From Candidatus Nanopelagicales bacterium (GTDB lineage Bacteria; Actinomycetota; Actinomycetes; S36-B12): a stretch of 61,333 bases of DNA. Below the pieces are notes generated by a model. The model did no database searches. It saw nothing but the letters and a program-made list of their open reading frames with translations, and was not told the origin of the DNA. The stretch spans positions 1 through 61,333 of the forward strand of contig JBDNFH010000164.1 in NCBI GenBank assembly GCA_041689915.1, written 5' to 3'. This document shows, one piece after another, positions 2,955 to 25,344 of this stretch (positions are counted from its first letter, which is position 1; every line of letters starts with the position of its first letter). The translations under genes and the position numbers were made by a program.

Positions 2955-2968
2955 GCCACAATGGGGTC

Positions 2969-8039: not shown

Positions 8040-8048
8040 GGACTAAGG

Positions 8049-8640: not shown

Positions 8641-8723
8641 CCCTACATAAACGGGTAATACCTCCGCTACGATCAGTTAAACTCAGTTAGATCGTGTTCG
8701 AACTACCCGGAGGGTCATGCGCT

Positions 8724-8891
8724 ATGTCTGAGCCTTGGTTTTCTGCCGACGGCATCGCCGCGCATTTAGGCGTCACGAAGGACACGGTCGTCGCCTGGAT
8801 CGCCGAGAAGCGAATGCCGGCTCACGAGGTCGGCAGACTCTGTAAGTTCCAGACCAGTGAGGTCGACGAGTGGGTCTGCAGCGGTGGGTAG
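8724..8891 (+). CDS. small excisionase/MerR-like helix-turn-helix DNA-binding protein (HTH_17-type)
   Basis: MSEPWFSADGIAAHLGVTKDTVVAWIAEKRMPAHEVGRLCKFQTSEVDEWV. GGAGGG at 8709-8714 lies upstream of ATG 8724. The gene ends 42 nt before brxA. Confidence 0.7.
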   Translation: MSEPWFSADGIAAHLGVTKDTVVAWIAEKRMPAHEVGRLCKFQTSEVDEWVCSGG

Positions 8892-8933
8892 CCATATCCT
8901 GAGCGACTTGCCTGAAACCGGATGGAGGTACCT

Positions 8934-9545
8934 ATGGCGAACGAGACCGCACGCGCATCACGCTACGCGTTGTCCTTCACCAGCGGCGCCCTCCTGATGC
9001 GCGAAGCGCTCGTCGCGGCCCCGATCTATCTCCATGAGCACGACTGGGCGAAGGTCCGTGAGCTGATCGAGGAGGACAACCTCCTTCAGTCCCGCACGCG
9101 TTCCTCCGGCTTCCGCCTAGCCCGCGAGGTCGCCCAGCGGCTCTCGGTGCTCACTGACGCCGAGATCGAGTTGCTCATCGACTCCACTACCTCTGAGCGG
9201 GGGCACCTTCTGTGGGCCGCGGCCTGCCGCCGTTACGACCTCATTGGGGAGTTCGCCGAAGAGGTGCTGCGTGAGCGCTACCTCATCCTCGCCCCGACGT
9301 TGGGCTACGACGACTTCGACAGTTTCGTCCGTGGCAAGGCCCTCTGGCACGAAGAAGTCGCTGACCTCAAGGACTCCACCTTGCGCAAGCTCCGTTCCAC
9401 CGTTTTTCGCATGCTCGTCGAGGCTGGCCTCGTGCCGGAGGACGGCCGGATCCTCCAAGCGGTGTTGTCCACGCGCGTTGCCGACGCGCTCTCGGCACGG
9501 ACACCCAGCGACATCCGCTTCTTTCCGACCGGAGGTACCCCGTGA
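8934..9545 (+). CDS. brxA: BREX protein BrxA (DUF1819 family)
   Basis: 203 aa with YALSFTSGALLMREAL...NLLQSRTRSS...EIELLIDS...LLWAAACRRYDLIGEFAEEVL, matching the DUF1819 pattern. GGAGG lies 5 nt upstream of ATG 8934. The track start at 8922 is less likely. Confidence 0.85.
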   Translation: MANETARASRYALSFTSGALLMREALVAAPIYLHEHDWAKVRELIEEDNLLQSRTRSSGFRLAREVAQRLSVLTDAEIELLIDSTTSERGHLLWAAACRRYDLIGEFAEEVLRERYLILAPTLGYDDFDSFVRGKALWHEEVADLKDSTLRKLRSTVFRMLVEAGLVPEDGRILQAVLSTRVADALSARTPSDIRFFPTGGTP

Positions 9546-10147
9546 TGAAGACGGCTGACCTGACCAAGCAGGAGGATCATCTGTTCGCTGTCCTCAGCGG
9601 CAAGCGCTTCCTGCAGATGGAGGGCCTCAGCAATGAGGTTCCGTTCTTCATTTACCCCTACCCGCCTGAGGCATCTCTCGCGGTGGCGCAAGCGAAGAAG
9701 CGAATCAAGACCAAGCTGTCCACGCAGCACGGCATCACGGTTCGTGAGGTCAACCTCTACGACCTGTCGGTAAAGATCCTCAAGGCCAGCGGTGACTGGG
9801 CTGAAGTACTCGAAGTCGAGCCGGGTCTCGACAAGTCGGACTTCTCCGAGATGTTGCAGTCCATGCTCAATCCGCAGCTGCACCTGGCACCGGCGATCCG
9901 GGAGAAGCTGGCGGGCGGCGACTTCGACATCGTCTTCCTCACGGGCATCGGTGAGGTCTTCCCTTACATCCGGTCGCACAACGTGCTCAACAACCTTCAG
10001 AGCGTTGTCACCGGCAAGCCAATGCTCATGTTCTTCCCCGGCCGCTACGAGCAATCCGACACCCTCGGCTCATCGCTTGTGCTCTTCGGGCGGTTGAAGG
10101 ACGACCAGTACTACCGAGCCAAGAATATTTTGGAACAGGAAGCGTGA
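9542..10147 (+). CDS. brxB: BREX protein BrxB (DUF1788 family)
   Basis: 201 aa with the FFIYPYPPE motif, in the position between brxA and brxC. Confidence 0.85.
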   Translation: MMKTADLTKQEDHLFAVLSGKRFLQMEGLSNEVPFFIYPYPPEASLAVAQAKKRIKTKLSTQHGITVREVNLYDLSVKILKASGDWAEVLEVEPGLDKSDFSEMLQSMLNPQLHLAPAIREKLAGGDFDIVFLTGIGEVFPYIRSHNVLNNLQSVVTGKPMLMFFPGRYEQSDTLGSSLVLFGRLKDDQYYRAKNILEQEA

Positions 10148-13100
10148 CCCAGATGCTGCTTAACGAGATCTTCGCCAAAGACGTCCAGCGCCCCATCGAG
10201 GGCGTCATCAAGGCGGACGACACTGCGCACCTGGGCACCGAGGTTGAGGAGTACGTCCTCACCAACGAGGCAGCCAAGAGCTTAGAGCTCCTACTCGAGG
10301 AGTACACGAACTACACCAACGCTAACGGCGTGTGGATCTCCGGCTTCTTCGGTTCCGGTAAGTCGCACCTCTTGAAGATGCTCGCCCACCTGCTCGGGGA
10401 CGTCGAGGGGCAGGCGCTTGAACGAGGCAACGTCTCCGAGAGTTTCCAGGCCAAGGCCCGCGGCGCGTTCCTGCCTGCCCTTCTCACCAAGACCGAGCGC
10501 ATCCCGGCCAGGAGCCTGCTGTTCAACATCGACCAGAAGGCATCGCTGATCACCAAAGACCAGGCCGACGCCCTGCTGAAGGTGTTCGTGAAGGTCTTCG
10601 ACGAGAGTCGCGGCTACTACGGGGATCAGGGGCATATCGCTCGATTCGAGCGCCAGCTCGACGAGGAAGGTCAGCTGGAAGCCTTCAAAGGTGTGTTTAA
10701 GTCGATCTCGGGCCGTGACTGGATGGAACGTCGGCCGAGCTTTGGGCTCCCCACGGTGCGAAAGCAGGTAGACGAGGCTTATGCGCAGGTGACGGGCGTC
10801 GACGTATCTAGCTCACTCGACATCCTGGCTACGTATCAAGCGACGTACGAAGTTTCGATCGAGGACTTCGCCGACGAGGTCAAGACGTGGCTAGACAAGC
10901 AGTCCGCCGATTTCCGCCTCAACTTCTTCGTCGACGAGGTCGGCCAGTTCATCGGCTCCAACACACACCTGATGCTCAATCTCCAGACGATCGCCGAGAG
11001 CCTCAACACCAAGTGCGCCGGACGAGCATGGGTGTTCGTCACCTCTCAGGAGGACATGGACAAGGTCGTCGGCGACCGCACCAAGGCGCAGGGCAACGAC
11101 TTCTCCAAGATCCAGGCCCGCTTCAAGACCCGCGTGAAGCTCACCAGCGCCGACGTCGAGGAGGTCATTCGCAAGCGTCTGCTCGACAAGAGCGACGCGG
11201 GCGCATCGGAGCTGAAGTCGATCTACGTCAAGGAGTCGGCGAACTTCAAGACTCTGTTCGACTTCGTCGACGGTGCGAAGACCTACCGCAACTACACAGA
11301 CGAGGCCCACTTCGTCGGCACATATCCGTTCGTGAGCTATCAGTTCCCGCTCTTCCAGGCAGCGATCGAGGGCATCTCCGATCACAATGTTTTCGAGGGC
11401 CGCAACAGCTCGGTGGGCGAGCGCTCGATGCTCGGAGTCGTCCAGCAGGTCGCCAAGGACATCGGTGACGTCGGAGTCGGCACGCTCGCAACCTTCGATC
11501 ACATGTTCGCTGGTATTCGGGCCTCACTGAAGTCCGCCGCACAGCGTTCCATCGACGTCGCCGAGCACAACCTCGACAATCCGCTCGCAATCCGCCTACT
11601 CAAGGCGCTGTTTCTCGTCAAGTACATCGAGAGCTTCCAGGCCACCCCCCGCAACCTGACCGTGCTGGTCTACGACCGCTTCGGCCTTGACCTTCCCGCC
11701 CTGGCGGAGGAGGTCAAGGAGGCGCTCACGCTGCTGGAGACGCAGACCTACGTTCAGCGCAACGGCAACATCTACGAGTACCTCACGAACGAAGAGCAGG
11801 TGATTGAGGAGGAGATCAAGAACGTCGACATCGATGCCTCCGAGGTCAGCAGTCGGCTTTTCAAGATCCTCTCCAACGACGTCATCAAGACCAACAAGCT
11901 GCGCTACGCCACGAACAGCCAGGACTTCCCGTTCGGCTTCAAGCTCGACGACCAGGTCCACGGCCCACATCGCGAACTCTCGGTCCACTTCATCACTCCG
12001 GAGTACCCCTTCGGCCCGGATGAGATCCGCATGCACAGCGCGGGCAAAGACGAGTTGCGCGTCATCCTCGAACCCGACGAGCGAGTCCTGACGGATCTGC
12101 GGCTCCTGATCAGGACCGAGAAGTACACCAAGCGCAAACAGACGACATCGCTCTCTGTGGTCGAGGACCAGATCCTGCGTTCAAAGGCGGTACAAAACGT
12201 CGAGCGCGAGAAGGAACTCATTGCTCGCATCCAGCGCGCCGCGGGTCAGTCCGCGCTCATCATCAACGCGGCCGACGTCACTTCCTCTTCGCAGGATGCT
12301 CTGACGAGAGTCACCGACGGCTTCCAAGAACTCGTCAGCCGCACCTACACCCAACTCAAGTTGCTGGGCGGTGTTACGTACAGCGAGCAGCAGGTAGCGG
12401 GTGCCGCCAACCCGGACAGCGGACTGTTCGACGCGGACGCGTTGTCGAAGATCAACCCGCCAGCCGAGGAGCTGCTGTCCTTCATCCTGCGCAAGGAGAA
12501 GCTAGGCGAGCAGGTCACCGTCAAGACGACTGTCGACACTTTCCAGGCCAAGCCCTACGGGTGGGACCTCGCCTCGATCGAGGTCATCGTCGCCTCGCTC
12601 ATTGGAGCCTCAAAAATCACGCTCACGGTGGACGGCAACGTCCTCAAGCGCAGCGAAATCGCGACGGCACTGCGCAACACGCAGAAGCACTCGCACGCAG
12701 TCGTCGCCCCGCAGAAGACCTTCGATGAGCGCAAGGTCGCCAACTTCCGCAAGTTCTGCACTGACTTCTTCGACGAGGGCAACGCACCCAAGGACCCGCT
12801 CGAACTCGCTCGCCACGGCGCGGACAAGCTCAAGGGCAAGCTTGACGAGCTGAAGGCGACCGTCAGCGGCTCGAAGTATCCGTTCATTGAGCAACTCAGC
12901 GGACCCATCACCCTCCTTGAGCAGGGCGTGGGCAAGTCCGATGACTGGTATCTCAACGACTTCGACCTCGACGACGAACTGCTCGAAGCCAAGGAGAACC
13001 TCATCGACCCGATCCAGTCGTTCCTCAACGGTGCGCAGCGGTCGATCTTCGACGAGGCCTCGGTGCTCCTATCCACGCATAGCAGCAACCTCAGCTACCT

Positions 13101-13632
13101 GCCCGCGGGCAGCGACGAGTCCATCAAGAACGCGCTCACCGACCCCAATGCCTTCCGCGGCAACAAGATGGCGCAGCTCAAGCAGGCCGCCGACAACCTC
13201 CGCGGCCAGATCGACACGATCGTGTCCGAGCGCCGAGGGGATGTCACGGCCGCGATCGAGAGCCGCAAGACCGAACTGGTCGGCGCGCACTACTACGCCA
13301 AGGCGACGCCAGAAGCCCAGCAGCGCGTCGTGCAGCGGATCGACTCGACATTGTCGCGAATTGGGAGCGAAAGCCAGGTCGCCCTCATCCTCCAGATCGG
13401 AGCGAACTTCGAGGCCAGCGACTACCCGGCCCTGCTCGACGTCCTTGCTTCCTGTCCGCAAGACCCGGGTCCCGACCCCACGCCCATGAAACAAACGGTC
13501 TCCGTGAGGACGATCGGAGTTCCCGGTGCATCGGGTGTGCTCGAAACCGAAGATGACGTCGACAAGTACCTCGCGGCTCTCCGTAGTGCGCTCGTCCAGA
13601 CTCTGAACGATGGAAAGCGAATCTCACTGTAA
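10144..13632 (+). CDS. brxC: BREX ATPase BrxC/PglY
   Basis: 1162 aa. Walker A GFFGSGKSH is at 10342-10365, followed by a DEVGQF Walker-B-like motif. Confidence 0.9.
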   Translation: MTQMLLNEIFAKDVQRPIEGVIKADDTAHLGTEVEEYVLTNEAAKSLELLLEEYTNYTNANGVWISGFFGSGKSHLLKMLAHLLGDVEGQALERGNVSESFQAKARGAFLPALLTKTERIPARSLLFNIDQKASLITKDQADALLKVFVKVFDESRGYYGDQGHIARFERQLDEEGQLEAFKGVFKSISGRDWMERRPSFGLPTVRKQVDEAYAQVTGVDVSSSLDILATYQATYEVSIEDFADEVKTWLDKQSADFRLNFFVDEVGQFIGSNTHLMLNLQTIAESLNTKCAGRAWVFVTSQEDMDKVVGDRTKAQGNDFSKIQARFKTRVKLTSADVEEVIRKRLLDKSDAGASELKSIYVKESANFKTLFDFVDGAKTYRNYTDEAHFVGTYPFVSYQFPLFQAAIEGISDHNVFEGRNSSVGERSMLGVVQQVAKDIGDVGVGTLATFDHMFAGIRASLKSAAQRSIDVAEHNLDNPLAIRLLKALFLVKYIESFQATPRNLTVLVYDRFGLDLPALAEEVKEALTLLETQTYVQRNGNIYEYLTNEEQVIEEEIKNVDIDASEVSSRLFKILSNDVIKTNKLRYATNSQDFPFGFKLDDQVHGPHRELSVHFITPEYPFGPDEIRMHSAGKDELRVILEPDERVLTDLRLLIRTEKYTKRKQTTSLSVVEDQILRSKAVQNVEREKELIARIQRAAGQSALIINAADVTSSSQDALTRVTDGFQELVSRTYTQLKLLGGVTYSEQQVAGAANPDSGLFDADALSKINPPAEELLSFILRKEKLGEQVTVKTTVDTFQAKPYGWDLASIEVIVASLIGASKITLTVDGNVLKRSEIATALRNTQKHSHAVVAPQKTFDERKVANFRKFCTDFFDEGNAPKDPLELARHGADKLKGKLDELKATVSGSKYPFIEQLSGPITLLEQGVGKSDDWYLNDFDLDDELLEAKENLIDPIQSFLNGAQRSIFDEASVLLSTHSSNLSYLPAGSDESIKNALTDPNAFRGNKMAQLKQAADNLRGQIDTIVSERRGDVTAAIESRKTELVGAHYYAKATPEAQQRVVQRIDSTLSRIGSESQVALILQIGANFEASDYPALLDVLASCPQDPGPDPTPMKQTVSVRTIGVPGASGVLETEDDVDKYLAALRSALVQTLNDGKRISL

Positions 13633-13648
13633 TGAACGAAGCACTTTG

Positions 13649-16600
13649 ATGGAAACCGCACCGCTGAAGTCCTTCGCGACGTGGGCTCGCAGTGCGCTCA
13701 TCCGCGAGGTCACCGCGCGCATCGCCACCGTGCTTGCGCCGGGCTCCTCCGAGCGAGTCGAGCAGACGAACGCTGTCGCCGCTCTGGAGAAGGCAGTCAC
13801 CGCTACGGGGGGAGGCGACAAGGGCCGCGCTGCCGTCGCTGACAAGGTTGCCTACACCTGGTTCAACCGGATTGTCGCGCTGCGATTCATGGACGCGAAC
13901 GGCTATACGGGCGTTGGTGTGCTCTCGCCGCAGTCAGGCGTTGAGGTCGGACAGCCTGAGATCCTCGCTGAGGCGAAACGCGGCGTCATCGACACCGAGG
14001 TTGTCAGCCGCCAGACCCGCGAGGCTGTCACGGGCTTGCTCGACGGCACGCGCAGTAGCGGCGACCCGCAGGGCGAGGCGTACGCGCTGCTGCTCGCGGA
14101 CTACTGCCGCCACTGGAACCGCTCGATGCCGTTCATGTTCGAGCGCGAGGGCGACTTCACCGAGTTGCTGATCCCGGCCAACCTACTCGCCGACGACTCA
14201 GTGCTCAACCGCTCCGTCAAGGTGCTGACCACCGAAGTCTGCCAGGACGTCGAAGTCATCGGTTGGCTCTACCAGTTCTACATCTCCGAGCGGAAAGACG
14301 AAGTCTTCGCCGGGTTCAAGAAGAACAAGAAGGCCGGCGCCGACGAGATCCCCGCAGCCACCCAGCTCTTCACCCCGCACTGGATTGTCCGCTACCTCGT
14401 CGAGAACTCACTCGGCAGACTCTGGATGCTCAACCGCCCGTCATCGCGGCTTACCGACCAGATGGACTTCTACATTGCCCCGGTCGACGAAGAAACGGAC
14501 TTCCTGAAGATCGCCAGCCCCGAGGAGCTGAAGATCATCGACCCCGCTTGCGGCTCGGGCCACCTGCTCACCTACGCCTTTGACCTCCTATACGCGATCT
14601 ACGAGGAGGAGGGCTACGCACCGTCCGAGATCCCCGGCCTGATCCTCGCCAACAACCTGTACGGAACCGAGATCGACCCGCGTGCGGGGGCCCTCGCTGC
14701 CTTCGCGCTCACCATGAAGGCCCGTGCAAAGCAGAGGACGTTCTTCAATCAGCACGTTGCGCCCAACGTTTGTGTCATCGAGCCGATCTCGTTCGGTCCC
14801 GACGAACTCGACCTTCTGTTGACCCAGGGGGGCGATCGCCACGAGGAGATCGCGTTCTGGAATCAGTTCGCGGAGGCAGACACGCTGGGTTCGTTGATCA
14901 AGCCAGATCTAGATCTGACGACTCGACTTCGACGCCACCTGGAGACACTCGACGGTGGCGACGACCTATTCACGGCGGACGTGATCGAGCAGGCTGCTCG
15001 AGTTGTGCGCCAAGCGGAGATCCTCGCCACGAGATACTCCGTGGTAGTGGCAAACCCGCCCTACATGGGGGCCAAAAGCATGGACAATCGCCTGGCCGAG
15101 TTTGCCAAGGCGGCGTACCAGCGGTCGCGATCTGACCTGTTCGCCATGTTCATTGAACGTTGCATTGGCCTCGTTAGAACCGGTGGCAACATTGGCATGA
15201 TCACCATGCAGTCTTGGATGTTCGGTTCTTCATTGGAACCGCTCCGCGACACCGTTCTACGTTCTACGTCAGTTCGTTCGATGGCTCACCTTGGCACAGG
15301 TGCTTTCGACACCATTAGCGGTGCGGTTGTTTCAACGACGGCGTTCGTGCTCGAGAAGCAGGATCCATTAGGCGATATGGCGGGAACATTTATTGATGTG
15401 ACTCGGTCGTCGACAGAGTCGGCAAAGCAAGCTCAATTGTTGCGAGCCATCGCGGATCGTTCAACCACGTTCGAGGTGAATACTTCCACCTTCAGGGGGA
15501 TCCCGGGCCAGCCGATCGCGTACTGGGTTTCGGAGGCAGTTGTGAAGACCTTTGAAAGTCACGAACCGCTCAGCGTCCTTGCAGACTTAAAGGCTGGCGT
15601 CTCCACGGGCGACAACACCATATTCCAACGCCAGTGGCACGAGGTTGGATGGTCACGGGTGAGTTCGACCGGATCTGGTGATACGCCTGTGGCTAACAGG
15701 TGGACTCCATGCAGTAGCGGTGGTCGATTGCGCCGTTGGTACGGCAACCGCGAAACCGTTATGGACTGGGAGCAGGATGGCAAACGCATTCGCTCTCATC
15801 TTGGCTCAGCGGTCAGGAACCCAACTTTCATGAGACGAGCTGGCCTGACCTACTCGAAGATTGGAGGAGCATTGTTCGCCGTCCGATTTGTAGAGCCCGG
15901 ATTTGTCTTTGATGACACTGGAAGGATGATCTTTCCTCGGCTTGAGGAGCACTCGCATGTCCTTGCAGCCGTGCTCAATTCGTCCATTGGGCAGTATTTT
16001 CTGGACGTCATGTCGCCGGGCCTTAGTTTCACTAGCTCGGAGATCGGCAATATCCCGGTGCCCCTCATTACGTTGGATGGATTGGCTAACTTGGTTGGTC
16101 GGGCGACGGAGATCGCCAAAAGGGACTGGGACATGAGCGAGACGTCCTGGGATCTCGTCGGCTCCCCTTTGCTGGATCCCTCATTGCCCGCGACAGCTTC
16201 ACTACGGGAACGTAACTCAGAGCTCTTGAGTCGAGCGCTCGCGACTAGCGAAGAGTTGAGAGGCCTTGAGGAGGCGATCAATGTCCGCGTTGCAGCCGAA
16301 TACGGTCTTGAGCATGTTGTCCACACGAACGTTCCACTTGGTCGGGTGACGCTCACTCAAAACCCAGCATTCCGATACGCGAGTGCGGAATCCACTTCTT
16401 ATGAGGAGATGGCATCCGCAGATTCCTGCCGCGATCTCGTATCGTTCGCGGTCGGTTGCGTGTTCGGGCGCTTCAGCCTGGATGAGCCGGGTCTGATCCT
16501 GGCTGACCAGGGTGCGACATTGCAGGACTACTTCGCCAAGGTGCCCGCACCGAGCTTCACCCCCGACGCCGACAATGTCATCCCGATCGTGGAGGGCGAC

Positions 16601-17119
16601 TGGTTTGAGGACGACATCGTGGCTCGGTTCCGCCAGTTCCTCCGGGTTGCCTTCGGTGAGCAGCACTTCGAGGAGAACTTGCGGTTCGTTACCGAGTCGC
16701 TGGGGGTGAAGGACATCCGCGACTACTTCGTGAAGTCTTTCTACAAGGACCACGTCCAGCGGTACAAGAAGCGCCCGATCTACTGGCTGTTCTCCAGCCC
16801 AAAGGGCTCGTTCAACGCGCTGATCTACATGCACCGGTACACCCCGTCGACGGTCTCAACTGTGCTCAACGAGTACCTCCGTGAGTTCCAGGCGAAGCTC
16901 AAAGCGAGCCTTGAGCACGCTGAGCGCTCCAATAATGCGAAGGAAGCCGACCGGCTCCGTAAGGTGCTGCTGGAGCTCGACGAGTACGAGCACGACGTCC
17001 TCTACCCGCTGGCGTCGCAGAACATTGTGATCGACCTGGACGACGGTGTGAAGGCGAACTACCCCAAGTTCGGTGCGGCGCTCAAGAAGATCGCGGGGCT
17101 TGAGGCGAGCCATGACTGA
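13649..17119 (+). CDS. pglX: BREX N6-adenine DNA methyltransferase PglX
   Basis: SAM motif I DPACGSGH is at 14540-14563 and motif IV NPPY at 15053-15064. Length is about 1157 aa. The start was moved to ATG 13649 (METAPLKSFA), downstream of the brxC stop. Confidence 0.9.
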   Translation: METAPLKSFATWARSALIREVTARIATVLAPGSSERVEQTNAVAALEKAVTATGGGDKGRAAVADKVAYTWFNRIVALRFMDANGYTGVGVLSPQSGVEVGQPEILAEAKRGVIDTEVVSRQTREAVTGLLDGTRSSGDPQGEAYALLLADYCRHWNRSMPFMFEREGDFTELLIPANLLADDSVLNRSVKVLTTEVCQDVEVIGWLYQFYISERKDEVFAGFKKNKKAGADEIPAATQLFTPHWIVRYLVENSLGRLWMLNRPSSRLTDQMDFYIAPVDEETDFLKIASPEELKIIDPACGSGHLLTYAFDLLYAIYEEEGYAPSEIPGLILANNLYGTEIDPRAGALAAFALTMKARAKQRTFFNQHVAPNVCVIEPISFGPDELDLLLTQGGDRHEEIAFWNQFAEADTLGSLIKPDLDLTTRLRRHLETLDGGDDLFTADVIEQAARVVRQAEILATRYSVVVANPPYMGAKSMDNRLAEFAKAAYQRSRSDLFAMFIERCIGLVRTGGNIGMITMQSWMFGSSLEPLRDTVLRSTSVRSMAHLGTGAFDTISGAVVSTTAFVLEKQDPLGDMAGTFIDVTRSSTESAKQAQLLRAIADRSTTFEVNTSTFRGIPGQPIAYWVSEAVVKTFESHEPLSVLADLKAGVSTGDNTIFQRQWHEVGWSRVSSTGSGDTPVANRWTPCSSGGRLRRWYGNRETVMDWEQDGKRIRSHLGSAVRNPTFMRRAGLTYSKIGGALFAVRFVEPGFVFDDTGRMIFPRLEEHSHVLAAVLNSSIGQYFLDVMSPGLSFTSSEIGNIPVPLITLDGLANLVGRATEIAKRDWDMSETSWDLVGSPLLDPSLPATASLRERNSELLSRALATSEELRGLEEAINVRVAAEYGLEHVVHTNVPLGRVTLTQNPAFRYASAESTSYEEMASADSCRDLVSFAVGCVFGRFSLDEPGLILADQGATLQDYFAKVPAPSFTPDADNVIPIVEGDWFEDDIVARFRQFLRVAFGEQHFEENLRFVTESLGVKDIRDYFVKSFYKDHVQRYKKRPIYWLFSSPKGSFNALIYMHRYTPSTVSTVLNEYLREFQAKLKASLEHAERSNNAKEADRLRKVLLELDEYEHDVLYPLASQNIVIDLDDGVKANYPKFGAALKKIAGLEASHD

Positions 17120-18116
17120 CCACGGCGAACTGATTCTGTATACCGCCGTGGACGGTGCGCGTTTCCAGTTGCGTGCCATTGACGGTACGGTCTGGCTCGC
17201 ACAGGCGCAGGTCGCTGATCTGTATGGCACGTCGACCCAGAACGTGCAGCAAACGATCGCCCGGGTTCTGGCCGATGGCGAGGTCGACGAGCGAACTATC
17301 AACTTTGAGTTGATAGTTCAGCAGGAAGGCTCCCGCACTGTTCGCCGTGAGGTCAAGGTGTACAACCTGGACATGGTGCTGGCAGTGGGCTACCGCGTCA
17401 CGACCCCGCGCGCGATCGCGTTCCGGCAGTGGGCGACGAGCGTTCTGCGCGAGTACCTCGTCAAGGGTTTTGCGATGGATGACCAGAAACTCAAGGCCGC
17501 CGACGGGTGGGACTACTTCGACGAGTGGCTGGCGCGGATCCGCGACATCCGAGCCTCGGAGAAGCGTTTTTACCAGAAGGTCCGAGATCTCTTTGCCACC
17601 GCCGTGGATTACGAGAAGTCCAGCGAGGCGGCCAGGGTTTTCTTCCAGAAGGTCCAGAACAAGATGCTTTGGGCCGTGACGGGGCACACCGCAGCAGAGA
17701 TCATCAGCGTTCGGAGCGACCCGGATGTAGTAAACATGGGCCTCACCTCGTGGGGCGGCAGCGTCGTGCGCAAGTCCGATGTGCCGGTTGCGAAGAACTA
17801 CCTGAACGCCGATGAGATCGCCGAACTGGATCTGATCGTCACCATGTACTTGGACTACGCCGAACTGCAAGCAAGGAATCGTCAGGCAATGACCATGGCC
17901 CAGTGGGCCGACCGGCTGGATGCGTTCCTGAAGTTCAACGAGCGGGAACTGCTCACCCATGCCGGGAGGGTTCGAGCTGAAGTCGCGAGAACGCTGGCAG
18001 AGTCCCGGTACGAAGAGTTCGAGCAGCAGCGCAAGCGTGACGCTTTGGCCGATGCCGATGCCGAGGACCTTGCAGCAATCGAGGCTCTCGAACAGCGCGG
18101 GAAGGACTTCGGGTGA
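17112..18116 (+). CDS. RhuM-family protein (Virulence_RhuM / COG3943-type) embedded in the BREX operon
   Basis: Family-typical strings are LILYTAVDG..VWLAQAQVADLYG, YNLDMVLAVGYRV, AFRQWATSVLREYLVKGF, IRDIRASEKRFYQKV, VQNKMLWAVTGHTAAEII, MGLTSW and VAKNYL..EI.EL. ATG 17112 overlaps the pglX stop and the gene's own stop overlaps the pglZ GTG. Confidence 0.85.
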   Translation: MTDHGELILYTAVDGARFQLRAIDGTVWLAQAQVADLYGTSTQNVQQTIARVLADGEVDERTINFELIVQQEGSRTVRREVKVYNLDMVLAVGYRVTTPRAIAFRQWATSVLREYLVKGFAMDDQKLKAADGWDYFDEWLARIRDIRASEKRFYQKVRDLFATAVDYEKSSEAARVFFQKVQNKMLWAVTGHTAAEIISVRSDPDVVNMGLTSWGGSVVRKSDVPVAKNYLNADEIAELDLIVTMYLDYAELQARNRQAMTMAQWADRLDAFLKFNERELLTHAGRVRAEVARTLAESRYEEFEQQRKRDALADADAEDLAAIEALEQRGKDFG

Positions 18117-20602
18117 CCGGACTTCGCGACCACCTCCTCCGACGATTCGACGAGCGCCGCGTGGTCTTCTGGCACGATCCGGAGGGTCAGCACTCCGCCG
18201 AGCTCGACAGCCTGGACCTTCCTGGCGTGACGACTGTTCGAGTCGCCAACGACGAGTACGCCATCAAGAATCGGCTCCTACACGATCGACCCGATGACAA
18301 GTTTCTCGTCTACCGTTGCGGCACCGTGCCCACTGGCATCGGCAACTGGCTGTACGACTTGGAGCTTGCCTACGGCGTGTTCACCGCCGACCGGACTTCC
18401 CTGGTGTCTCAGGATCTCGGCCTGACCGCTGACGGGATCGACGAGGTTGTTCAAGAGCACGAGAAGTTCTTCAACGCCAGTAAGCGCGTCCAGAGCCTCA
18501 AGGCATTGTTGAGGCCCGAGGATGACGCGGCCCGGCTCCGCGCCAAAATGTCCGCCGTCATGCTCAACCAGCGGGAGCACAGCCTGCTGGAGATCACCCG
18601 CACACTGCTTTCCGAGAACGCCAAGGGGCAGCGCACCAAGTACGACACGCTCGCCGACTACGCCCTCGACGACTTCTACTGGCGCGGCGTCGCCTCGATC
18701 TACGGCTACGAGTGCGCCTCGCCGAGCATTGACGACTTCACCCTCTGGATCTTCCGCAAGGCCATCGAAGGCTTCACGTCTGAGCGTCCCGGCGGCCTCC
18801 AGAACATCCAGCTCGACTTCGCGAGTTTGCGCAATGATCGTCGGAGTCAGGATGCCCTCTCGATTCTCGCGAAGCGTGCGTCGGCCGACCTCAACTACAA
18901 GGCGAGCATTGAGGATGCCAGCTTCCGCGATCTCGTCTCAGTCGACCTCTTTGAGGAGACCGACCAGAAGATCACCAGCGACCTTGCCCGAGCGGTCACC
19001 GAGCAGAGCGTCACGGCGCGCGAGGTCGCTGAAGTTGTTCGCGCCCGCCAGAGCAGTGTCTGGATCGATGGCTACCGCCAGCTCTACGCGGCGATTGGCG
19101 CTGCGGCGGAACTACTATCGGCGCTGGTGTCCATCGACTTCACGATGTCCTCGTTCGATGACGCGCTGGATCATTACCGGAACGACTGGTTCCGAATCGA
19201 CCAGCTCTACCGCCAGTTCACCTACGCCCACCGCACGTTCGAGGGACCCCATCCACTCGACCCGCTGCGCGAGCAGGTTGAGAAGCGATACACCAACAAG
19301 TTCGTCTACGAATTGGGCAACGCCTGGCAGGAGAAGGTCGACGAGGCTGACCAGTGGGCGTCGTCGGTGCTTCGCTCCCAGCGGTCGTTCTACGCCGACT
19401 ACATCGCGCGGCTCGTCCGTGACGATAAGAAAGCGGTCGTCATCATTTCCGACGCCCTCCGCTACGAGGTTGCCGAGGAACTGGGCTCACGGATCCGCCA
19501 AGAGGACCGCTTCGACGCCGACCTTGACGCGGTTCTGGGTGTCCTTCCTAGCTACACGCAACTCGGTATGGCGGCCCTGCTCCCGCACCGCACGCTCAAG
19601 CACTCGCTCGACGGGAAGACCGTGCTCGCCGACGACCAGCCGACGAATGGCACCGGCCCAAGAGGCAAGATTCTTGCAACGGTCGGCGGTTCCGCGATCC
19701 AAGCCGAGGACTTCAAGGCGCTAAACCCCGAGGAACGCCGCGAACTCTTCAAGAACAACCGTGTTCTGTACGTCTACCACGACGTCATCGATGCCACCGG
19801 TGACAAGCAGGGAACCGAGCGGCGCGTCTTCGAGGCGGCGGAGCAGGCTCTTGGCGAACTGGTCGACTTGGTGAAGAAGGCCGCGAACGCCAACGCGACC
19901 AACATCTTTATCACGGCCGATCACGGGTTCCTGTTCCAGGACGAGGCTCTGCCCGAACAGTTCTACCTCTCCGTGCAGCCGCAGGGCGACAAGATCTTGG
20001 TGACCAACCGCCGCTACGTCCTCGGACACGGGCTCAAGGTTGACTACGCCTTCACGACGTTCAGTTCAGTGCAGCTCGCGTTGGACAGCGACATCGAGGT
20101 GCAGATCCCCAAGTCGATCCACCGGCTCAAGTTGGCAGGCGGCGGCTCGCGGTTCGTCCATGGGGGAGCGACGCTCCAAGAGGTCGTCGTTCCGGTCCTC
20201 TCGATCAACAAGAAACGCAAGAGCGACACCCGCCTGGTCAACGTCGCGGTGCTACCCGAGTCCGACAAGATCACGACCGGCCAGATTGTCGTGAAGCTCT
20301 TCCAATCCGAGCCCGCGAGCGACAAGGTGCAGCCGCGCACGCTCCGCGCTGGCCTCTACGTCGGCGAGACGCTGATCTCTAACGACCCGCGGCCGGAGCT
20401 GAACTTCGACTCGACCTCGCCAGAGAAGCGGGATCGTTATCAGAGTGTGCAGTTGCTCCTCAACAAGGACTCCACCGACTACAACAACCGCGCCGTCGAG
20501 TTCCGCCTCGAAGAGCGCGTCCCCAACACCAACCACTGGCGCGTCTTTGCCAAGGCGATCTACACACTCAAGCGGTCCTTCGCATCAGACTTCGACTTCT
20601 AA
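18113..20602 (+). CDS. pglZ: BREX alkaline-phosphatase-superfamily protein PglZ
   Basis: 829 aa with VVFWHDPEG at the N-terminus. PglZ-domain strings are VVIISDALRYEVAEELG and FITADHGF. Confidence 0.9.
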   Translation: MTGLRDHLLRRFDERRVVFWHDPEGQHSAELDSLDLPGVTTVRVANDEYAIKNRLLHDRPDDKFLVYRCGTVPTGIGNWLYDLELAYGVFTADRTSLVSQDLGLTADGIDEVVQEHEKFFNASKRVQSLKALLRPEDDAARLRAKMSAVMLNQREHSLLEITRTLLSENAKGQRTKYDTLADYALDDFYWRGVASIYGYECASPSIDDFTLWIFRKAIEGFTSERPGGLQNIQLDFASLRNDRRSQDALSILAKRASADLNYKASIEDASFRDLVSVDLFEETDQKITSDLARAVTEQSVTAREVAEVVRARQSSVWIDGYRQLYAAIGAAAELLSALVSIDFTMSSFDDALDHYRNDWFRIDQLYRQFTYAHRTFEGPHPLDPLREQVEKRYTNKFVYELGNAWQEKVDEADQWASSVLRSQRSFYADYIARLVRDDKKAVVIISDALRYEVAEELGSRIRQEDRFDADLDAVLGVLPSYTQLGMAALLPHRTLKHSLDGKTVLADDQPTNGTGPRGKILATVGGSAIQAEDFKALNPEERRELFKNNRVLYVYHDVIDATGDKQGTERRVFEAAEQALGELVDLVKKAANANATNIFITADHGFLFQDEALPEQFYLSVQPQGDKILVTNRRYVLGHGLKVDYAFTTFSSVQLALDSDIEVQIPKSIHRLKLAGGGSRFVHGGATLQEVVVPVLSINKKRKSDTRLVNVAVLPESDKITTGQIVVKLFQSEPASDKVQPRTLRAGLYVGETLISNDPRPELNFDSTSPEKRDRYQSVQLLLNKDSTDYNNRAVEFRLEERVPNTNHWRVFAKAIYTLKRSFASDFDF

Positions 20603-20608
20603 GGCGGC

Positions 20609-22768
20609 ATGATGACCGAAGACACTGATCAGCCCGTGATCGACGACGACTTCCCCGAAGACGTCGCCGACGAGAGCACGACCAACCAGACACCCGAGCA
20701 GTCCGCCCTCGACATAAAAATCAACCAGCACTTCGCCGGAGTCGTCGTCCGCAAGGACCTGGTCAAGGCGGTCAAGGGCAACGCCATCGTTCCGTCGTAC
20801 GTCCTGGAGTACCTGCTCGGCCAGTACGCAGCGTCGGACGACGAGGCGACGATCCAGGCCGGCATCGGAACAGTTCGCCAGATTCTCTCCGACCATTACG
20901 TACACCGGAATCAGTCCGAGTTGGTGAAGTCGACCATCCGCGAGCGCGGGCGCTACAAGATCATCGACAGGGTTGCCGTCACCCTCAATGACAAGGACGA
21001 TGTTTACGAGGCTGAGTTCGCCAACCTCGGAATCAAGGGCGTCCTCGTCGAGCCAGCGACAATCACCGCCCACCCCAAACTCCTGGTTGGCGGTGTTTGG
21101 TGCATCTGCGATATCGAGTACTTCCATAGTGACAACGCCCGGGATGTTCCATGGATTCTCGGTTCGATCAAGCCGATCCAGCTGTCCAACTTCGATCTCG
21201 AGGGCTACCTCGCTGCCCGCCGGGAGTTCCCCACCGATGACTGGATCGACCTTCTGATCCAGTCGATCGGCTTCAACCCGGCCCTGTTCGGGCGTCGAGC
21301 GAAGCTCATCCAGCTTGTCCGGCTCATTCCGTTCGCCGAGCGCAACTACAACCTCGTGGAACTCGGCCCAAAGGGCACCGGCAAGTCACACATCTTCTCG
21401 GAGTTCTCACCCCACGGCATGCTGATCTCCGGTGGCGAAGTCACCGTTGCGAAGCTGTTCGTGAACAACTCCAACGGCCGTCTCGGCCTGGTCGGCTATT
21501 GGGACGTCGTGGCATTCGACGAGTTTGCCGGTCAGAAGAAGCGCACGGACAAGGCGCTGGTCGACATCATGAAGAACTACATGGCGAACAAGTCGTTCTC
21601 ACGTGGCGTCGAGACCCTTGGGGCCGAGGCGTCGATGGTTTTCGTTGGCAACACGTCCCACAACGTGCCGTATATGCTCAAGCACTCAGACCTGTTCGAT
21701 GAACTGCCAGAGAGCTACCACGATTCGGCGTTCCTCGATCGCCTGCACCACTACATCCCTGGCTGGGAGGTCGACACGATCCGGGGAGAGATGTTCTCTG
21801 ACGGCTACGGCTTCGTCGTTGACTACATCGCTGAGGTCCTCAAGTCGATGCGGGACGCCGACTATTCCGACCGCTACCAGCAGTACTTCACGCTCGGGTC
21901 GGATATCTCGACCCGCGACCGCGATGGCATCCACAAGACGTTCTCGGGCTTGATGAAGATCATCTATCCGCACGGAGAAGCGACCCAGGAGGAGATCCAG
22001 GAGATCCTCAGTTTCGCGATTGAGGGCCGCAAGCGCGTCAAGGACCAGATCCTGCGCATCGACTCGACTATGACGGACGTGAAGTTCGGCTACCTCGACA
22101 ACGCGGGCGAGTGGCACGGCGTCACGACCCTGGAAGAGGACGAGTACCCAAGGTATTACCGCCAGACGCGTCACGAGGATGCGGAGGACGCTGATAGCGA
22201 AGGAGTCGAAGCGGACGTCCCCGATGGCGGCGGCACCGAGTCTGAGCAAACGCCGGTACCAACGCTCTTCGAGGGGCATCGTGAGTATCAAGAGAACCAA
22301 CGGGGTGTGGCCTACGAGTCGTTGCTGATCCCTTACCTCAGGGGCGCAACCGAGATCACCATCACGGACCCCTACATCCGGCAGTTCCACCAAGCGCGAA
22401 ACCTGATGGAACTAATCGAGGGCATCGCCGCAATAAAAGACGCTGCCGACGAGGTGGCCGTCAAGCTCATCACCTCCGAGAACCCAGACGGCGTGGACAA
22501 GGTCCGAAAGCAGTTGGAGAACTTGATCAAGGTCCAGAAGGGTGCTGAAGCTGCCGGGATCAAGTTCGATGTCATCCTCGACAACACGATCCACGACCGC
22601 TCGATCGTTACCGATACCGGCTGGAAGATTCTTCTCGGTCGTGGCCTGGACATCTTCCAATTTGTATCTGGCGATGCGTTCGACCTCGCGACCAGGCTCC
22701 AGGAGTACCGCCAGGTCAAGGCATTCGGCGTGACCTACATCCGCGAGGGCGAAGGGACAGGTCGGTGA
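20609..22768 (+). CDS. brxL: BrxL-family AAA+ protein; C-terminal Lon-like domain replaced by an MIT_C-type PLD-fold domain
   Basis: The N-terminal ~515 aa carry BrxL strings: INQHFAGVVVRKDL, VPSYVLEYLLGQY, YEAEFANLGIK, Walker A GPKGTGKS at 21365-21388, WDVVAFDE and FLDRLHHYIPGWE. The last ~150 aa (from 22304) read YESLLIPYL..TDPYIRQFHQARN...IHDRSIVTDTGWKILLGRGLDIF. Confidence 0.85.
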   Translation: MMTEDTDQPVIDDDFPEDVADESTTNQTPEQSALDIKINQHFAGVVVRKDLVKAVKGNAIVPSYVLEYLLGQYAASDDEATIQAGIGTVRQILSDHYVHRNQSELVKSTIRERGRYKIIDRVAVTLNDKDDVYEAEFANLGIKGVLVEPATITAHPKLLVGGVWCICDIEYFHSDNARDVPWILGSIKPIQLSNFDLEGYLAARREFPTDDWIDLLIQSIGFNPALFGRRAKLIQLVRLIPFAERNYNLVELGPKGTGKSHIFSEFSPHGMLISGGEVTVAKLFVNNSNGRLGLVGYWDVVAFDEFAGQKKRTDKALVDIMKNYMANKSFSRGVETLGAEASMVFVGNTSHNVPYMLKHSDLFDELPESYHDSAFLDRLHHYIPGWEVDTIRGEMFSDGYGFVVDYIAEVLKSMRDADYSDRYQQYFTLGSDISTRDRDGIHKTFSGLMKIIYPHGEATQEEIQEILSFAIEGRKRVKDQILRIDSTMTDVKFGYLDNAGEWHGVTTLEEDEYPRYYRQTRHEDAEDADSEGVEADVPDGGGTESEQTPVPTLFEGHREYQENQRGVAYESLLIPYLRGATEITITDPYIRQFHQARNLMELIEGIAAIKDAADEVAVKLITSENPDGVDKVRKQLENLIKVQKGAEAAGIKFDVILDNTIHDRSIVTDTGWKILLGRGLDIFQFVSGDAFDLATRLQEYRQVKAFGVTYIREGEGTGR

Positions 22769-23114
22769 GCTTGGGAAAGTATTGTCGGAAAAGTCTGTTG
22801 GTGTTCTCGTTGCTTCCTGGTTGCCAGGGACTTGCAGGGTCGCAGAAGTACACCTTGACACCGATATCACGTGTGACGTCGAGGTGGCTGGCCATTTCGG
22901 TTCCTTGGTCCCAGGTCAAGGACTTGCGCAATTCTTGCGGTAGTTGTCCAAGGCCAGCAACCAGAGCGGCGTGCAGTGTCTGCGAATCGCGCCTCGCGAG
23001 ATGGAGTAATTTCACTTTGCGTGTTTGCCGATTGAAGAGTGTTCCAATCGCGGAGTGGTTCTGTTTCCCAACGATTAAGTCGCCTTCTTTACTATTTAGC
23101 CAGGGTGAGTTCAT
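22760..23114 (-). pseudogene. IS30-family transposase remnant (DDE core only, truncated at both ends)
   Basis: EGDLIVGK...SLTWDQGTEMA...VYFCDPASPWQPGSNENTNRLFRQYFPKLTDLS. Family similarity stops at TDLS, which coincides with the brxL stop (22766-22768). More degenerate, frame-broken similarity is possible up to about 23250. Confidence 0.7.
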
Positions 23115-23271
23115 GGCTGTTATGGTGTCGTGATCATCTCAGGTGATCACCACACCTTGATTTGGAATTCAGATCTCGGACTTCAGGTTGTGCCCGGAGT
23201 CGACTCGCAGGGACTGCTCACCGATTTTCCTCGAAAGGTAACCCAAAAGTCCGTTATCTCTACCTGCCTAC

Positions 23272-25344
23272 CTATCTCTGCACTGTCAGAACGTAGGTTG
23301 ATCGTGGCTGGCACACGAGTACTTCACCAGCTTCATGTAGGTGTTCAACAGGTTGCCCATTGGTTGCGTAGGTGTCCAGAATTGCGACATACGATTTCGC
23401 ATACGGCAATGCAGGGAGCGTGAAATTCGCGGGATCGCTACCCGTATGGAAAATGGCGAAGATACTTTCTTCACTTTCATCAGTTGGTGTCAGAAACATT
23501 CCGATTGATGTGTGCTCACCGTGATGCCAGTCCGTGATTTCTAGGGCATCTGGCCCAAACCAGGCGAGATCTTTAGGCCCCCCCGCGTGGTTGGGCTCAC
23601 CAGAGTAGAAATCAAGTGGGCGCAGCATGGGGTGTGAACGACGAATGTGCGCCATGGTTGCAACGAAGTCAATCAGGTCCCAGTCAGGTTGATTGAGATC
23701 CCAGTTAACCCAGGAGTAGGTATTGTCTTGACAGTAGACGTTGTTGTTCCCTCTCTGTGTTTTATGCAGTTCATCCCCTGAAGTGATCATGGGGACTCCA
23801 CCGGAGAGAAATAAAGTCGCGAGGAAATTTCGCACCATTCGATTCCGAGTCTGAACAATTGTTGTTTCCTCGCTGTGACCCTCGACGCCAAAATTGTATG
23901 AACGATTGTTGTCGGTGCCATCGCGATTTTCTTCCAGGTTGGCTTCATTGTGTTTTTCGTTGAAGCTGACTAAATCAAGCAGGGTGAAACCGTCATGGGC
24001 AGTAATGAAATTAATGGATGAATATGGATCGGTACCGTCACCTCCATAGAGATCTTGGGATCCGGAAAGCCGCCAGCCGATTCCGGCTATTCCGCCTGCA
24101 CCTCGCCAGAAATCCCTGACGTCATCGCGGTACTTGTCATTCCACTCGCTCCAGAGTGGCGGGAATGACCCCAATTGGTAGCCACCTGGGCCGACATCCC
24201 ATGGTTCGGCAATGAGTTTTGAGCGCCGTAAAACGGGATCCTGAGAGATCGTGGTCAAGAAATTCCCGAGCATGTCGACTTCATGAAACGAACGCGCCAA
24301 GGTTGACGCGAGGTCGAATCGAAAACCGTCCACATGCATTTCGCTCACCCAGTAGCGCAGTGAGTCCATGATCAATTGAAGTGCCTGCGGTTGTGCTGCG
24401 TTAATCGTGTTGCCGCAGCCGGCGAAATTGACGTAGTCGCCCGTGTCTGTGAGTCGGTAAAAATCCTTGTTGTTAATGCCTTTGAACGACAGGCTTGGGC
24501 CCAGAGCGCCACCCTCAGCCGTGTGGTTGTACACGACGTCAAGAATTACTTCAATATCTGCGCGGTGTAGTTCCTTTACCATGTATTTAAAGTCGTCTAT
24601 TTGATTTCCAGGTGTGCTGGCATAGCCGGCATGTGGAGCAAAAAATCCGATCGTGTTGTATCCCCAATAATTGGAAAGTCCGGTATCCATTACGTGGGTT
24701 TCAGTGACGAAATGATGAACGGGCAAAAGTTCAATTGCAGAGACCCCAATGTGAACTAGGTGGTCAATTACTTCCTTGCAGGCAATCCCCCTAAATGTTC
24801 CTCGATCCTGCTCAGGCACAGATGGATGCAAATAGGTGAGCCCCTTAACGTGGGCTTCGTAAATACAGGTTTCGTTCCAAGGGCGTTCGAGGGGTTTGTC
24901 CCCCTCCCAGTCAAAGTCGGATACAACGGTGAGGCCGTGCGGCACAAAATCTCGGCTGTCCAGGATCGACATGGATGACGGGTCGTCGATCGCGTAGTCA
25001 AAAATTGCGGGGTCATTGCGAAGTTCGCCTGTGATCGAAAGTGCATAGGGATCAAGGAGAAATTTATTAGCGTTAAAGCGCATTCCATTGCTCGGATCCC
25101 AAGGTCCGTGAACCCGAAAGCCATAACGCGTCCCTGGACCAATGCCAGGAACGATTGAGTAGTGCACGTTTTGTACACGATGTTCAAGTTCGTGCCTGGT
25201 TTCGGTAAAGCCTTGTGTTTCGTCACCACTTACGACACAGAATTCCACTTTGTCAGCGTGAGGGGCCCAGAGGGAAACCTTTGCGCTGCCATCTTCGAGA
25301 AGGGTGACTCCGAAAGGATCCCAGTGTCCAACTTTGGTGCGCAC
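23272..25344 (-). CDS. glgX: glycogen debranching enzyme
   Basis: GH13 motifs VILDVVYNHT, DGFRFDLAS, LIAEPWD and FITAHDGFTL. GTG start. Confidence 0.95.
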   Translation of the reverse strand: MRTKVGHWDPFGVTLLEDGSAKVSLWAPHADKVEFCVVSGDETQGFTETRHELEHRVQNVHYSIVPGIGPGTRYGFRVHGPWDPSNGMRFNANKFLLDPYALSITGELRNDPAIFDYAIDDPSSMSILDSRDFVPHGLTVVSDFDWEGDKPLERPWNETCIYEAHVKGLTYLHPSVPEQDRGTFRGIACKEVIDHLVHIGVSAIELLPVHHFVTETHVMDTGLSNYWGYNTIGFFAPHAGYASTPGNQIDDFKYMVKELHRADIEVILDVVYNHTAEGGALGPSLSFKGINNKDFYRLTDTGDYVNFAGCGNTINAAQPQALQLIMDSLRYWVSEMHVDGFRFDLASTLARSFHEVDMLGNFLTTISQDPVLRRSKLIAEPWDVGPGGYQLGSFPPLWSEWNDKYRDDVRDFWRGAGGIAGIGWRLSGSQDLYGGDGTDPYSSINFITAHDGFTLLDLVSFNEKHNEANLEENRDGTDNNRSYNFGVEGHSEETTIVQTRNRMVRNFLATLFLSGGVPMITSGDELHKTQRGNNNVYCQDNTYSWVNWDLNQPDWDLIDFVATMAHIRRSHPMLRPLDFYSGEPNHAGGPKDLAWFGPDALEITDWHHGEHTSIGMFLTPTDESEESIFAIFHTGSDPANFTLPALPYAKSYVAILDTYATNGQPVEHLHEAGEVLVCQPRSTYVLTVQR

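Follow-up and report, generated by a model that had tools for sequence, protein, structure and literature searches.

RhuM as an embedded gene with a probable role in defence

In 2013, Anantharaman et al. reported that RhuM genes occur in restriction-modification (R-M) neighbourhoods at the position of the DOC toxin and are often fused to DOC, and proposed that RhuM acts as a toxin in multilevel defence (PMC3710099). Payne et al. (2024), whose study is the source of the PDC candidates, found that genes are frequently embedded in operons for bacteriophage exclusion (BREX), DISARM and type I R-M, with 96.7% of these genes co-oriented, and list RhuM as embedded family FAM_00003 in their supplementary table. 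One RhuM-domain gene of the PDC-S05 family was expressed alone in E. coli B, where it lowered the plating of the phages T7 and T5 about 1000-fold and that of T4 about 10-fold (Nature Communications 2026; PMC12881386). Like those for BrxC, PglZ and HsdS, RhuM genes are also over-represented in the vicinity of programmed inversions, with an odds ratio of 14 for specificity-gene inversions (PMC9881135), and a BREX survey of 2026, in which RhuM is not mentioned, describes back-up effectors embedded in BREX loci, including Schlafen-like genes (PMC12839542). A literature search for the mechanism of RhuM found none, and a plain 'RhuM' query returned mostly unrelated papers. Here, we analyse a rhuM gene that lies between pglX and pglZ of a type 1 BREX operon in a stretch of 61,333 nucleotides (nt) from a Candidatus Nanopelagicales bacterium (contig JBDNFH010000164.1), which is referred to as the window. 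An initial annotation of this DNA had called the family functionally uncharacterised, a statement that is out of date, as the family corresponds to PDC-S05 and one of its members has been shown to reduce phage plating (PMC12881386).

The rhuM gene of the window is probably a separable, self-sufficient second-layer defence gene, which occupies a cargo slot of the BREX operon. RhuM is regarded as separable because sister BREX loci lack it, because rhuM is intact in loci where BREX has decayed and because many RhuM loci lie outside BREX. Among the roles that had been put forward in the initial annotation, that of a back-up effector, in the sense of an independent second layer, fits best, whereas a regulator and an obligate accessory protein fit worst. 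This kind of gene is already known; the window adds a further member together with natural presence/absence variants, and the picture of how BREX itself works is left unchanged.

The family assignment, which had been made by motif recognition, was borne out by a scan with the Pfam Virulence_RhuM model (PF13310), which matches the window protein with an E value of 6.8e-107 and 356.9 bits (cut-off 33.7) over nearly the full profile (positions 4-250 of 252). PADLOC PDC-S05 matches residues 3-329 (E 7.6e-136, 450.5 bits), and a scan of NCBIfam returned no model for this protein. The gene resembles PDC-S05 in matching its models over the full length, in carrying the same motifs and in the same kind of same-strand embedding in BREX or type I R-M operons; its position on the same strand within a BREX operon, between pglX and pglZ, is the placement by which PDC candidates were selected. 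It differs in its actinobacterial sub-clade, which resides in BREX and not in type I R-M operons. Further BREX-embedded defence genes, namely BrxU/GmrSD, PARIS, Schlafen-like, HEPN and Shedu genes, share slot and orientation with rhuM and are viewed in the literature as second-layer or back-up effectors. Compared to this cargo, RhuM lacks a recognisable nuclease, ATPase or RNase domain, and its gene is welded to its neighbours by overlaps on both sides with no non-coding DNA added. The PrrC gene of the type I R-M system EcoprrI is likewise a single gene nested among the hsd genes and co-expressed with them, and is a precedent for an embedded effector that acts upon inhibition of its host system; however, PrrC combines an ABC ATPase with a HEPN RNase, neither of which is present in RhuM. 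PrrC is also nearly exclusive to type I R-M (Payne et al. 2024), whereas RhuM is found outside of R-M and BREX in 31 of 80 loci, as described below.

Separability of rhuM from BREX

Related BREX loci were collected from metagenomes by alignment of PglZ, which yielded 80 loci with PglZ 40-85% identical to that of the window, 71 of which have an assessable pglX-pglZ junction. The two genes are joined directly at 40 of these junctions and are separated by a short gap at four; other inserts, 0.5-4 kb in length, are found at 26 and RhuM at one. Where PglZ is at least 70% identical, 19 of the 20 junctions are direct, one holds another insert and none holds RhuM. The other cargo comprises Schlafen/AlbA_2-HATPase_c_4-Fic-like_C genes (15 open reading frames, ORFs) and ABC ATPases of the AriA, PDC-S06 or HEC-01 type (11 ORFs), and also includes DUF4276, Shedu and Fic genes. 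The pglX-pglZ junction repeatedly serves as a cargo slot in type 1 BREX operons, and RhuM, at one of 71 junctions, is not found in essentially all loci of the lineage. In a tree of PglZ, loci that carry RhuM are intermingled with sister loci that lack it: the window and locus L085 group with L097, L088 with L096 and L093 with L114. When the nucleotide sequence of the window is compared with those of L096, L097, L099 and L101, homology is lost at positions 17119-17124 and returns at about 18140-18161; the window and its RhuM-less sisters therefore differ by exactly one ORF, which is rhuM.

A second line of evidence comes from loci in which BREX has decayed and rhuM is intact, namely L001/L002, whose RhuM is 97% identical at the amino acid level, and L003/L004 (85%). 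In L001/L002, the remnants consist of in-frame fusions of BrxA(2-133) with BrxB(113-201) and of BrxC(1-35) with PglX(1127-1169) and of about 150 nt of pglZ; the BrxC-PglX stub still overlaps the ATG of rhuM by 8 nt. The decay pattern of L003/L004 is unlike that of L001/L002, but the outcome is alike, as rhuM is intact here, too. The ratio of non-synonymous to synonymous substitution rates (dN/dS) of rhuM is 0.11-0.27 across all pairs and amounts to 0.20 and 0.12 on the decayed-locus branches of L001 and L003, respectively. Since rhuM is intact, dN/dS is low and the coupled frames are kept, the gene and its upstream reading frames look maintained. The decayed loci span positions 9185-11173 in L001 and 9052-11226 in L003, and in the latter a 5' piece of pglZ, about 90 nt long, lies on either side of rhuM.

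The third line of evidence is the distribution of the family, which is large: a full HMMER scan recovered 18,537 clusters at 50% identity (E<=1e-3), and homologs are present on phages, phage satellites and 128 plasmids. Genomic contexts were sampled at 80 loci of species-representative genomes with RhuM proteins 51-73% identical to that of the window; neighbour classes were assigned by phmmer/tblastn matches to Pfam-verified seeds and rest on these matches because greedy ORF calling in the fetched loci was crude. By script labels, 46 of the loci are type I R-M operons, two are type IIG, one is BREX and 31 are other contexts; inspection added a third type IIG case, L020, and in type IIG loci rhuM directly follows MmeI-like or Eco57I-like enzymes. 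The proposal that RhuM nests in type I R-M operons was thus well founded, whereas an occurrence only together with BREX genes is not seen, given the 46 type I R-M loci, the 31 others and the intact copies in decayed BREX. Type I R-M operons usually show the order hsdM-rhuM-hsdS...hsdR, and a gene for a YgjP-like peptidase often comes next. In the 31 other loci, which were described by pooled Pfam and PADLOC tallies, the neighbours include integrases, HerA/SIR2, type III R-M, SoFic, AbiE and housekeeping genes. In 40 loci, the gene immediately 5' of rhuM on the same strand has an R-M or BREX label, and in 30 of them it encodes a methyltransferase (HsdM in 27 cases and PglX, MmeI and an Eco57I-like enzyme in one case each). 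The two genes overlap by 4 nt in 19 and by 8 nt in nine cases (28 together). The welded nesting is therefore the norm for RhuM and not special to the window.

The closest relatives of the window protein differ in context from the family at large. Those embedded in BREX include protein P0004 (94% identity to the window protein), found in loci L085-L087 with a full BREX operon and two tandem pglX genes, and P0008 (80%), whose locus L088 has the same architecture as the window. P0012 (78%) is encoded in L089 in the order 'pglX-rhuM-Schlafen-like-pglZ-brxL, P0022 (73%) in L005 of Actinomyces sp. B33 in the order pglX-rhuM-pglZ-brxL, P0026 (72%) in L091 of Leucobacter insecticola in the order rhuM-pglZ-SIR2-HerA-brxL and P0030 (69%) in L093 in the order pglX-orf196-rhuM-pglZ-SIR2-HerA-brxL; P0044 (69%), from locus L092 of Actinomyces, occupies another slot (brxC-rhuM-pglX). 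In a neighbour-joining tree, the BREX-embedded RhuM proteins form one actinobacterial clade, within which P0017 (73%) from a type I R-M operon of Microbacterium profundi (L090) is nested; the sister group consists of actinobacterial RhuM proteins from type I R-M operons. In nearer relatives, the identity of RhuM to the window protein tracks that of BrxC, PglZ and BrxL, with values for RhuM/BrxC/PglZ/BrxL of 94/93/93/90 in L085 and 81/82/80/81 in L088; those of L093 and L005 are 69/78/70/76 and 73/57/51/60, respectively. The order within the RhuM clade broadly follows the PglZ tree. The single clade and the matching gradients indicate that the association with BREX is old and largely vertical, and rhuM is, as had been argued in the initial annotation, not a recent hitchhiker. 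Probably, rhuM joined an actinobacterial BREX lineage with HKD-like BrxL a long time ago, a type I R-M operon being its most likely source, and the two have mostly been inherited together ever since, with neither needing the other.

The junctions of rhuM with its neighbours are tight. The ORF starts with an ATG at position 17112, ends with the TGA at 18114-18116 and encodes 334 amino acids. Its start overlaps the stop of pglX by 8 nt (ATGACTGA, 17112-17119, + strand), and the start of pglZ overlaps its stop by 4 nt (GTGA, 18113-18116, + strand), so that the ORF and both overlaps stand as first annotated; the same type of 8-nt overlap between pglX and rhuM is present in L085, L088, L001 and L003. 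As read from the sequence, the Shine-Dalgarno sequence of rhuM (GAGG, 17102-17105, + strand) lies within the 3' end of pglX, 6 nt before the ATG, and that of pglZ (GGAAGGA, 18100-18106, + strand) lies within the 3' end of rhuM, 6 nt before the GTG. The ORF listing also contains a longer version of rhuM starting with a GTG at 17073; the ATG at 17112 is preferred because homologs start at the same aligned position (MTDHGELILY vs. MSDGELILY), and the placement of the GAGG also fits this start. No promoter or terminator of its own was found near rhuM in a scan that was, as a whole, not above shuffled controls. The overlapping starts and stops and the lack of above-chance promoter or terminator signals fit co-transcription and translational coupling, in agreement with the co-translation suggested earlier. 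rhuM would then be translated from the BREX transcript by coupling, with its start signals in the 3' end of pglX and those of pglZ in the 3' end of rhuM, and RhuM would consequently be made whenever the cell makes BREX.

At the borders of rhuM, an imperfect 8-nt repeat is visible (ATGACTGA at 17112-17119 and GTGACCGG at 18113-18120), and in RhuM-less sister loci pglZ itself starts with ATGACCGA or GTGACTGA. This repeat may have served as microhomology for insertion or precise loss of the gene, or may be a coincidence.

Several points weigh against a self-sufficient second layer. The frequency of one RhuM among 71 junctions is a rough one, as the loci were drawn among the 600 pattern matches listed. 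The substitution counts are small, as rhuM of the window and that of L001 differ by 13 non-synonymous and 16 synonymous changes, and the low dN/dS of L001 and L003 may partly be older than the decay of BREX along the branch. RASEKRFYQK, the most conserved motif of the protein, partly falls into a low-confidence region of the structural model (residues 119-151). Furthermore, phage protection rests on one member of PDC-S05, which stems from another organism and lies outside the BREX clade of the window protein. E. coli B has a type I R-M system of its own, so that help by a methyltransferase in trans is possible. Finally, the long co-inheritance, the tight coupling on both sides and the marked preference for a position behind the methyltransferase gene could mean, despite the separability, that RhuM is functionally tied to the methyltransferase. 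A natural comparison set is provided by BREX with rhuM, the same lineage without rhuM and rhuM alone after the decay of BREX, and the preference for the slot behind a methyltransferase gene, together with the 4- and 8-nt overlaps, makes the question of whether RhuM acts alone or via the methyltransferase testable.

Architecture and possible roles of RhuM

An alignment of 83 sequences from three clades, which are 41-100% identical to the window protein, contains 50 invariant columns. The most conserved stretch of the family is the RASEKRFYQK motif (residues 147-156; 17550-17579, + strand), in which R147, E150, R152, Y154, Q155 and K156 are invariant. In a second motif, VQNKMLWA (residues 181-188; 17652-17675, + strand), this applies to Q182, N183 and A188; both motifs served as search patterns for RhuM loci in genomes. 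The invariant charged or polar residues of the protein (R144, R147, E150, R152, Y154, Q155, K156, D166, Q182, N183, R201, D223, K228, E235 and E251) suggest a binding pocket or a catalytic site. The 83 sequences were also used for an AlphaFold2 model with a predicted local distance difference test (pLDDT) score of 78.6, which replaced a first model from a 37-sequence alignment (pLDDT 65) with a poor C-terminal domain. In the second model, residues 1-118 (17112-17465, + strand) form a beta-plus-helix domain with a pLDDT of 82-94 over most of its length, residues 119-151 are of low confidence and residues 160-332 (17589-18107, + strand) form an all-helical C-terminal domain with a pLDDT of mostly 80-92.

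The modelled N-terminal domain is of the Bro-N/KilA-N/anti-repressor type and is predicted to bind DNA. A Foldseek search of BFVD returned 48 matches at E<=1e-3 (best 8e-9), and Bro-N, anti-repressor, repressor-domain or KilA-N proteins make up most of the named ones among those listed; the PHROG anti-repressor Ant matches with an E value of 1.1e-4. Similarity at the sequence level is weak (Pfam Bro-N, E 0.033 and 15.2 bits, below the cut-off of 25.6; Phage_pRha, E 0.08). The likeness to the phage proteins of this type covers the fold of residues 1 to about 118, and only this domain is shared, as those proteins lack the RASEKRFYQK/VQNKMLWA region. Models of PADLOC PDC-S23 have residues 1-170 in common with the window protein and diverge beyond, so that the Bro-N domain and the RASEKRFYQK helix may constitute a module with alternative C-termini. 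The only significant Foldseek match in the PDB, obtained with both models, is DdrC of Deinococcus radiodurans (7udi, 8u0g and 7qvb; E 1e-4 to 2e-3, TM-scores 0.18-0.41), which likewise consists of an N-terminal DNA-binding domain followed by helices. However, root mean square deviations of 9-17 Å, an identity of 12-14% and the lack of a sequence match make DdrC a lead rather than a family assignment. PDB sequence searches with the single sequence and with a profile gave chance-level matches only. Pfam, the translated sequence and Foldseek against the PDB gave no indication of a Fic/DOC, nuclease, ATPase or any other enzymatic fold or motif in RhuM. Structure prediction had been proposed as a way to discriminate between DNA-binding and Fic/DOC-like modules; it supports the former for the N-terminal domain and provides no fold for the latter. 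A relationship to E. coli DinD, an idea derived from the CDD label 'dinD' on some RhuM proteins quoted in PMC9881135, was rejected (hhalign probability 0.2%, blastp E 29; the template was a single sequence, which limits sensitivity).

In a self-sufficient second layer, the Bro-N-type domain might bind DNA or a DNA-like phage component, and the conserved region reaching from RASEKRFYQK into the helical C-terminal domain might execute or trigger the block of infection. RhuM would then be active once the methylation-based system has been evaded or inhibited.

It seems unlikely, albeit conceivable, that RhuM is produced in step with the adjacent N6-adenine methyltransferase, be it HsdM, PglX or an MmeI-type enzyme, because it partners with, is held inactive by or monitors this enzyme, and that it fires once phage anti-restriction proteins, for example DNA mimics, have disabled the enzyme or once DNA has been nicked or broken by restriction or PglZ. 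Such a logic is known from PrrC/EcoprrI and PARIS/Ocr, precedents that have been discussed for embedded genes (Payne et al. 2024), and it would match the methyltransferase gene found immediately 5' in 30 of the 40 labelled loci, with cases from type I, type IIG and BREX alike, as well as the PARIS-like AriA ATPases in the same pglX-pglZ slot. The DNA-binding-type domain of RhuM could recognise a DNA mimic, and the tested PDC-S05 protein was strongest against T7 and T5. However, an R-M or BREX gene is not adjacent in 31 of the 80 loci, rhuM outlasts the deletion of pglX in remnants of the L001-L004 type, and the preference for this slot may only mark where insertions are tolerated. If it applied, RhuM, which ranks among the most abundant embedded families, would represent a general counter to anti-restriction in BREX as well as in type I R-M and type IIG systems.

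The initial annotation had considered RhuM to be a co-evolved component of BREX. It is unlikely that RhuM is an integral accessory subunit which cooperates with PglX or PglZ in sensing or regulation and whose stoichiometric production is ensured by the coupling. The overlaps on both sides with Shine-Dalgarno sequences inside the neighbouring genes, the base composition shared with the operon, the single BREX-RhuM clade that is broadly congruent with PglZ and the retention of the slot across Nanopelagicales-like metagenome-assembled genomes, Actinomyces and Leucobacter are all consistent with it. The evidence in favour of a subunit is countered by sister loci with PglZ 73-85% identical, in which pglX abuts pglZ and rhuM is absent, by the different slot in L092, by the extra ORF of 196 amino acids between pglX and rhuM in L093 and by the type I R-M location of the clade member L090. 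Together with the single occurrence among 71 junctions and the persistence of intact rhuM in BREX stubs, these loci speak against a BREX component. To our knowledge, the experimentally studied BREX systems work as a six-gene set that does not include RhuM.

It is rather improbable that RhuM is a protein-modifying toxin, as put forward by Anantharaman et al. (2013), which would stabilise the island as an addiction module or kill infected cells like DOC/Fic. RhuM replaces DOC in R-M neighbourhoods and is reportedly often fused to it (PMC3710099), Fic genes were found in the same slot among the 71 BREX junctions, several database records label RhuM proteins as 'toxin Fic', and the many invariant polar residues might hint at catalysis. 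Nevertheless, a Fic/DOC module was dismissed, since neither half of the protein has a Fic/DOC match in Pfam at E<=10, a motif of the HxFx(D/E)GNGRxxR type is absent and Foldseek searches of the PDB with both models retrieved no Fic, DOC or other enzyme fold. No small antitoxin gene of a type II toxin-antitoxin pair lies beside rhuM, the neighbours being pglX and pglZ, whose overlaps leave no room for one, and the member expressed in E. coli still allowed lawns for plaque assays.

It is very improbable that RhuM is an anti-repressor- or Bro-like DNA-binding regulator of transcription, which would adjust how its host operon is expressed or phase-varied. The fold of the N-terminal domain, the enrichment near specificity-gene inversions (odds ratio 14; PMC9881135) and inverted pglX target-recognition copies beside rhuM in L005 and L089 would suit such a role. 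However, this enrichment is expected for any resident of BREX and type I R-M loci, the C-terminal region of 200 residues is more conserved than regulation would require, there is no operon to regulate in 31 of the 80 loci and one member defends when cloned alone.

The BREX island and further observations

The type 1 BREX operon of the window is complete and lies entirely on the + strand. It consists of brxA (8922-9545; Pfam BrxA, E 5e-53), brxB (9542-10147; BrxB, E 3e-39), brxC (10144-13632; BrxC domains, E down to 6e-47), pglX (13610-17119), which encodes the BREX N6-adenine methyltransferase (Eco57I, N6_Mtase and MmeI_Mtase), rhuM (17112-18116; PF13310 and PADLOC PDC-S05), pglZ (18113-20602; PglZ, E 6e-57) and brxL (20609-22768; BrxL_N, BrxL_ATPase and MIT_C; PADLOC BrxL). 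The C-terminus of BrxL carries a PLD/HKD-like MIT_C domain in place of the Lon-protease C-domain; HKD-type variants have been described in the 2026 BREX survey (PMC12839542), and this variant is common to every RhuM-bearing BREX relative in which brxL is visible.

The operon is part of a 15-kb island (8040-23271) with a GC content of 60.4% inside DNA of 52.7% GC, which is bordered by glgE (6000-8039, - strand) and glgX (23272-25344, - strand); neither a tRNA nor an integrase gene was found at its borders. The composition of rhuM (60.6% GC, 77% GC at third codon positions, GC3) falls within the range of the operon genes (58-65% GC, 74-84% GC3) and is unlike that of the flanking glgB, glgE and glgX (51-52% GC, 50-53% GC3). 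The compositional match with the operon noted in the initial annotation is therefore upheld, whereas its figure of 73% GC is wrong for the gene, as about 75% is reached in one 60-nt stretch only. A small putative HTH_17/excisionase-like ORF (8694-8891, + strand) lies directly 5' of brxA, a call based on its position and on HTH_17 genes upstream of brxA in L093 and L094, and is a possible regulator of the BREX operon. Just 5' of brxA, a putative transposase fragment was recognised by eye (8159-8467, - strand). Downstream, an ORF of 122 amino acids (22765-23133) overlaps the stop of brxL by 4 nt; its GC content of 52% is host-like rather than island-like, and it has no match in Pfam, PADLOC or NCBIfam.

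RhuM-bearing relatives differ in further cargo and in the arrangement of pglX. A SIR2-HerA (DUF87) pair is located between pglZ and brxL in L091 (13510-17059) and L093 (13502-17031), and since both loci also carry rhuM, two separate cargo slots are occupied per operon. Beside pglX, L005 (6469-7578, - strand) and L089 (40-2301) carry partial pglX copies in inverted orientation, which correspond to the target-recognition region (about amino acids 496-855) and resemble phase-variable shufflons; L089 additionally contains an integrase gene. In L085, two full-length tandem pglX genes (2904-10008) are present instead.

Further cargo was often observed with RhuM genes embedded in type I R-M operons, at L050, L059, L064, L067 (about 11000-12760), L014 and L028 (12168-13839). 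Cargo of type I R-M operons includes a Ser/Thr protein kinase gene after rhuM (in the order hsdR-rhuM-kinase), DUF6119 between hsdS and hsdR and a YgjP-like metallopeptidase gene after hsdR. Full-length RhuM homologs with 40-62% identity are encoded by the Gordonia phages Bakery and Sidious, by the Wolbachia phage WO (gp8) and by Streptococcus satellite phages; phage RhuM records are MK937603.1 (56318-57235), MK967384.1, AB036666.1 and MK448542.1.

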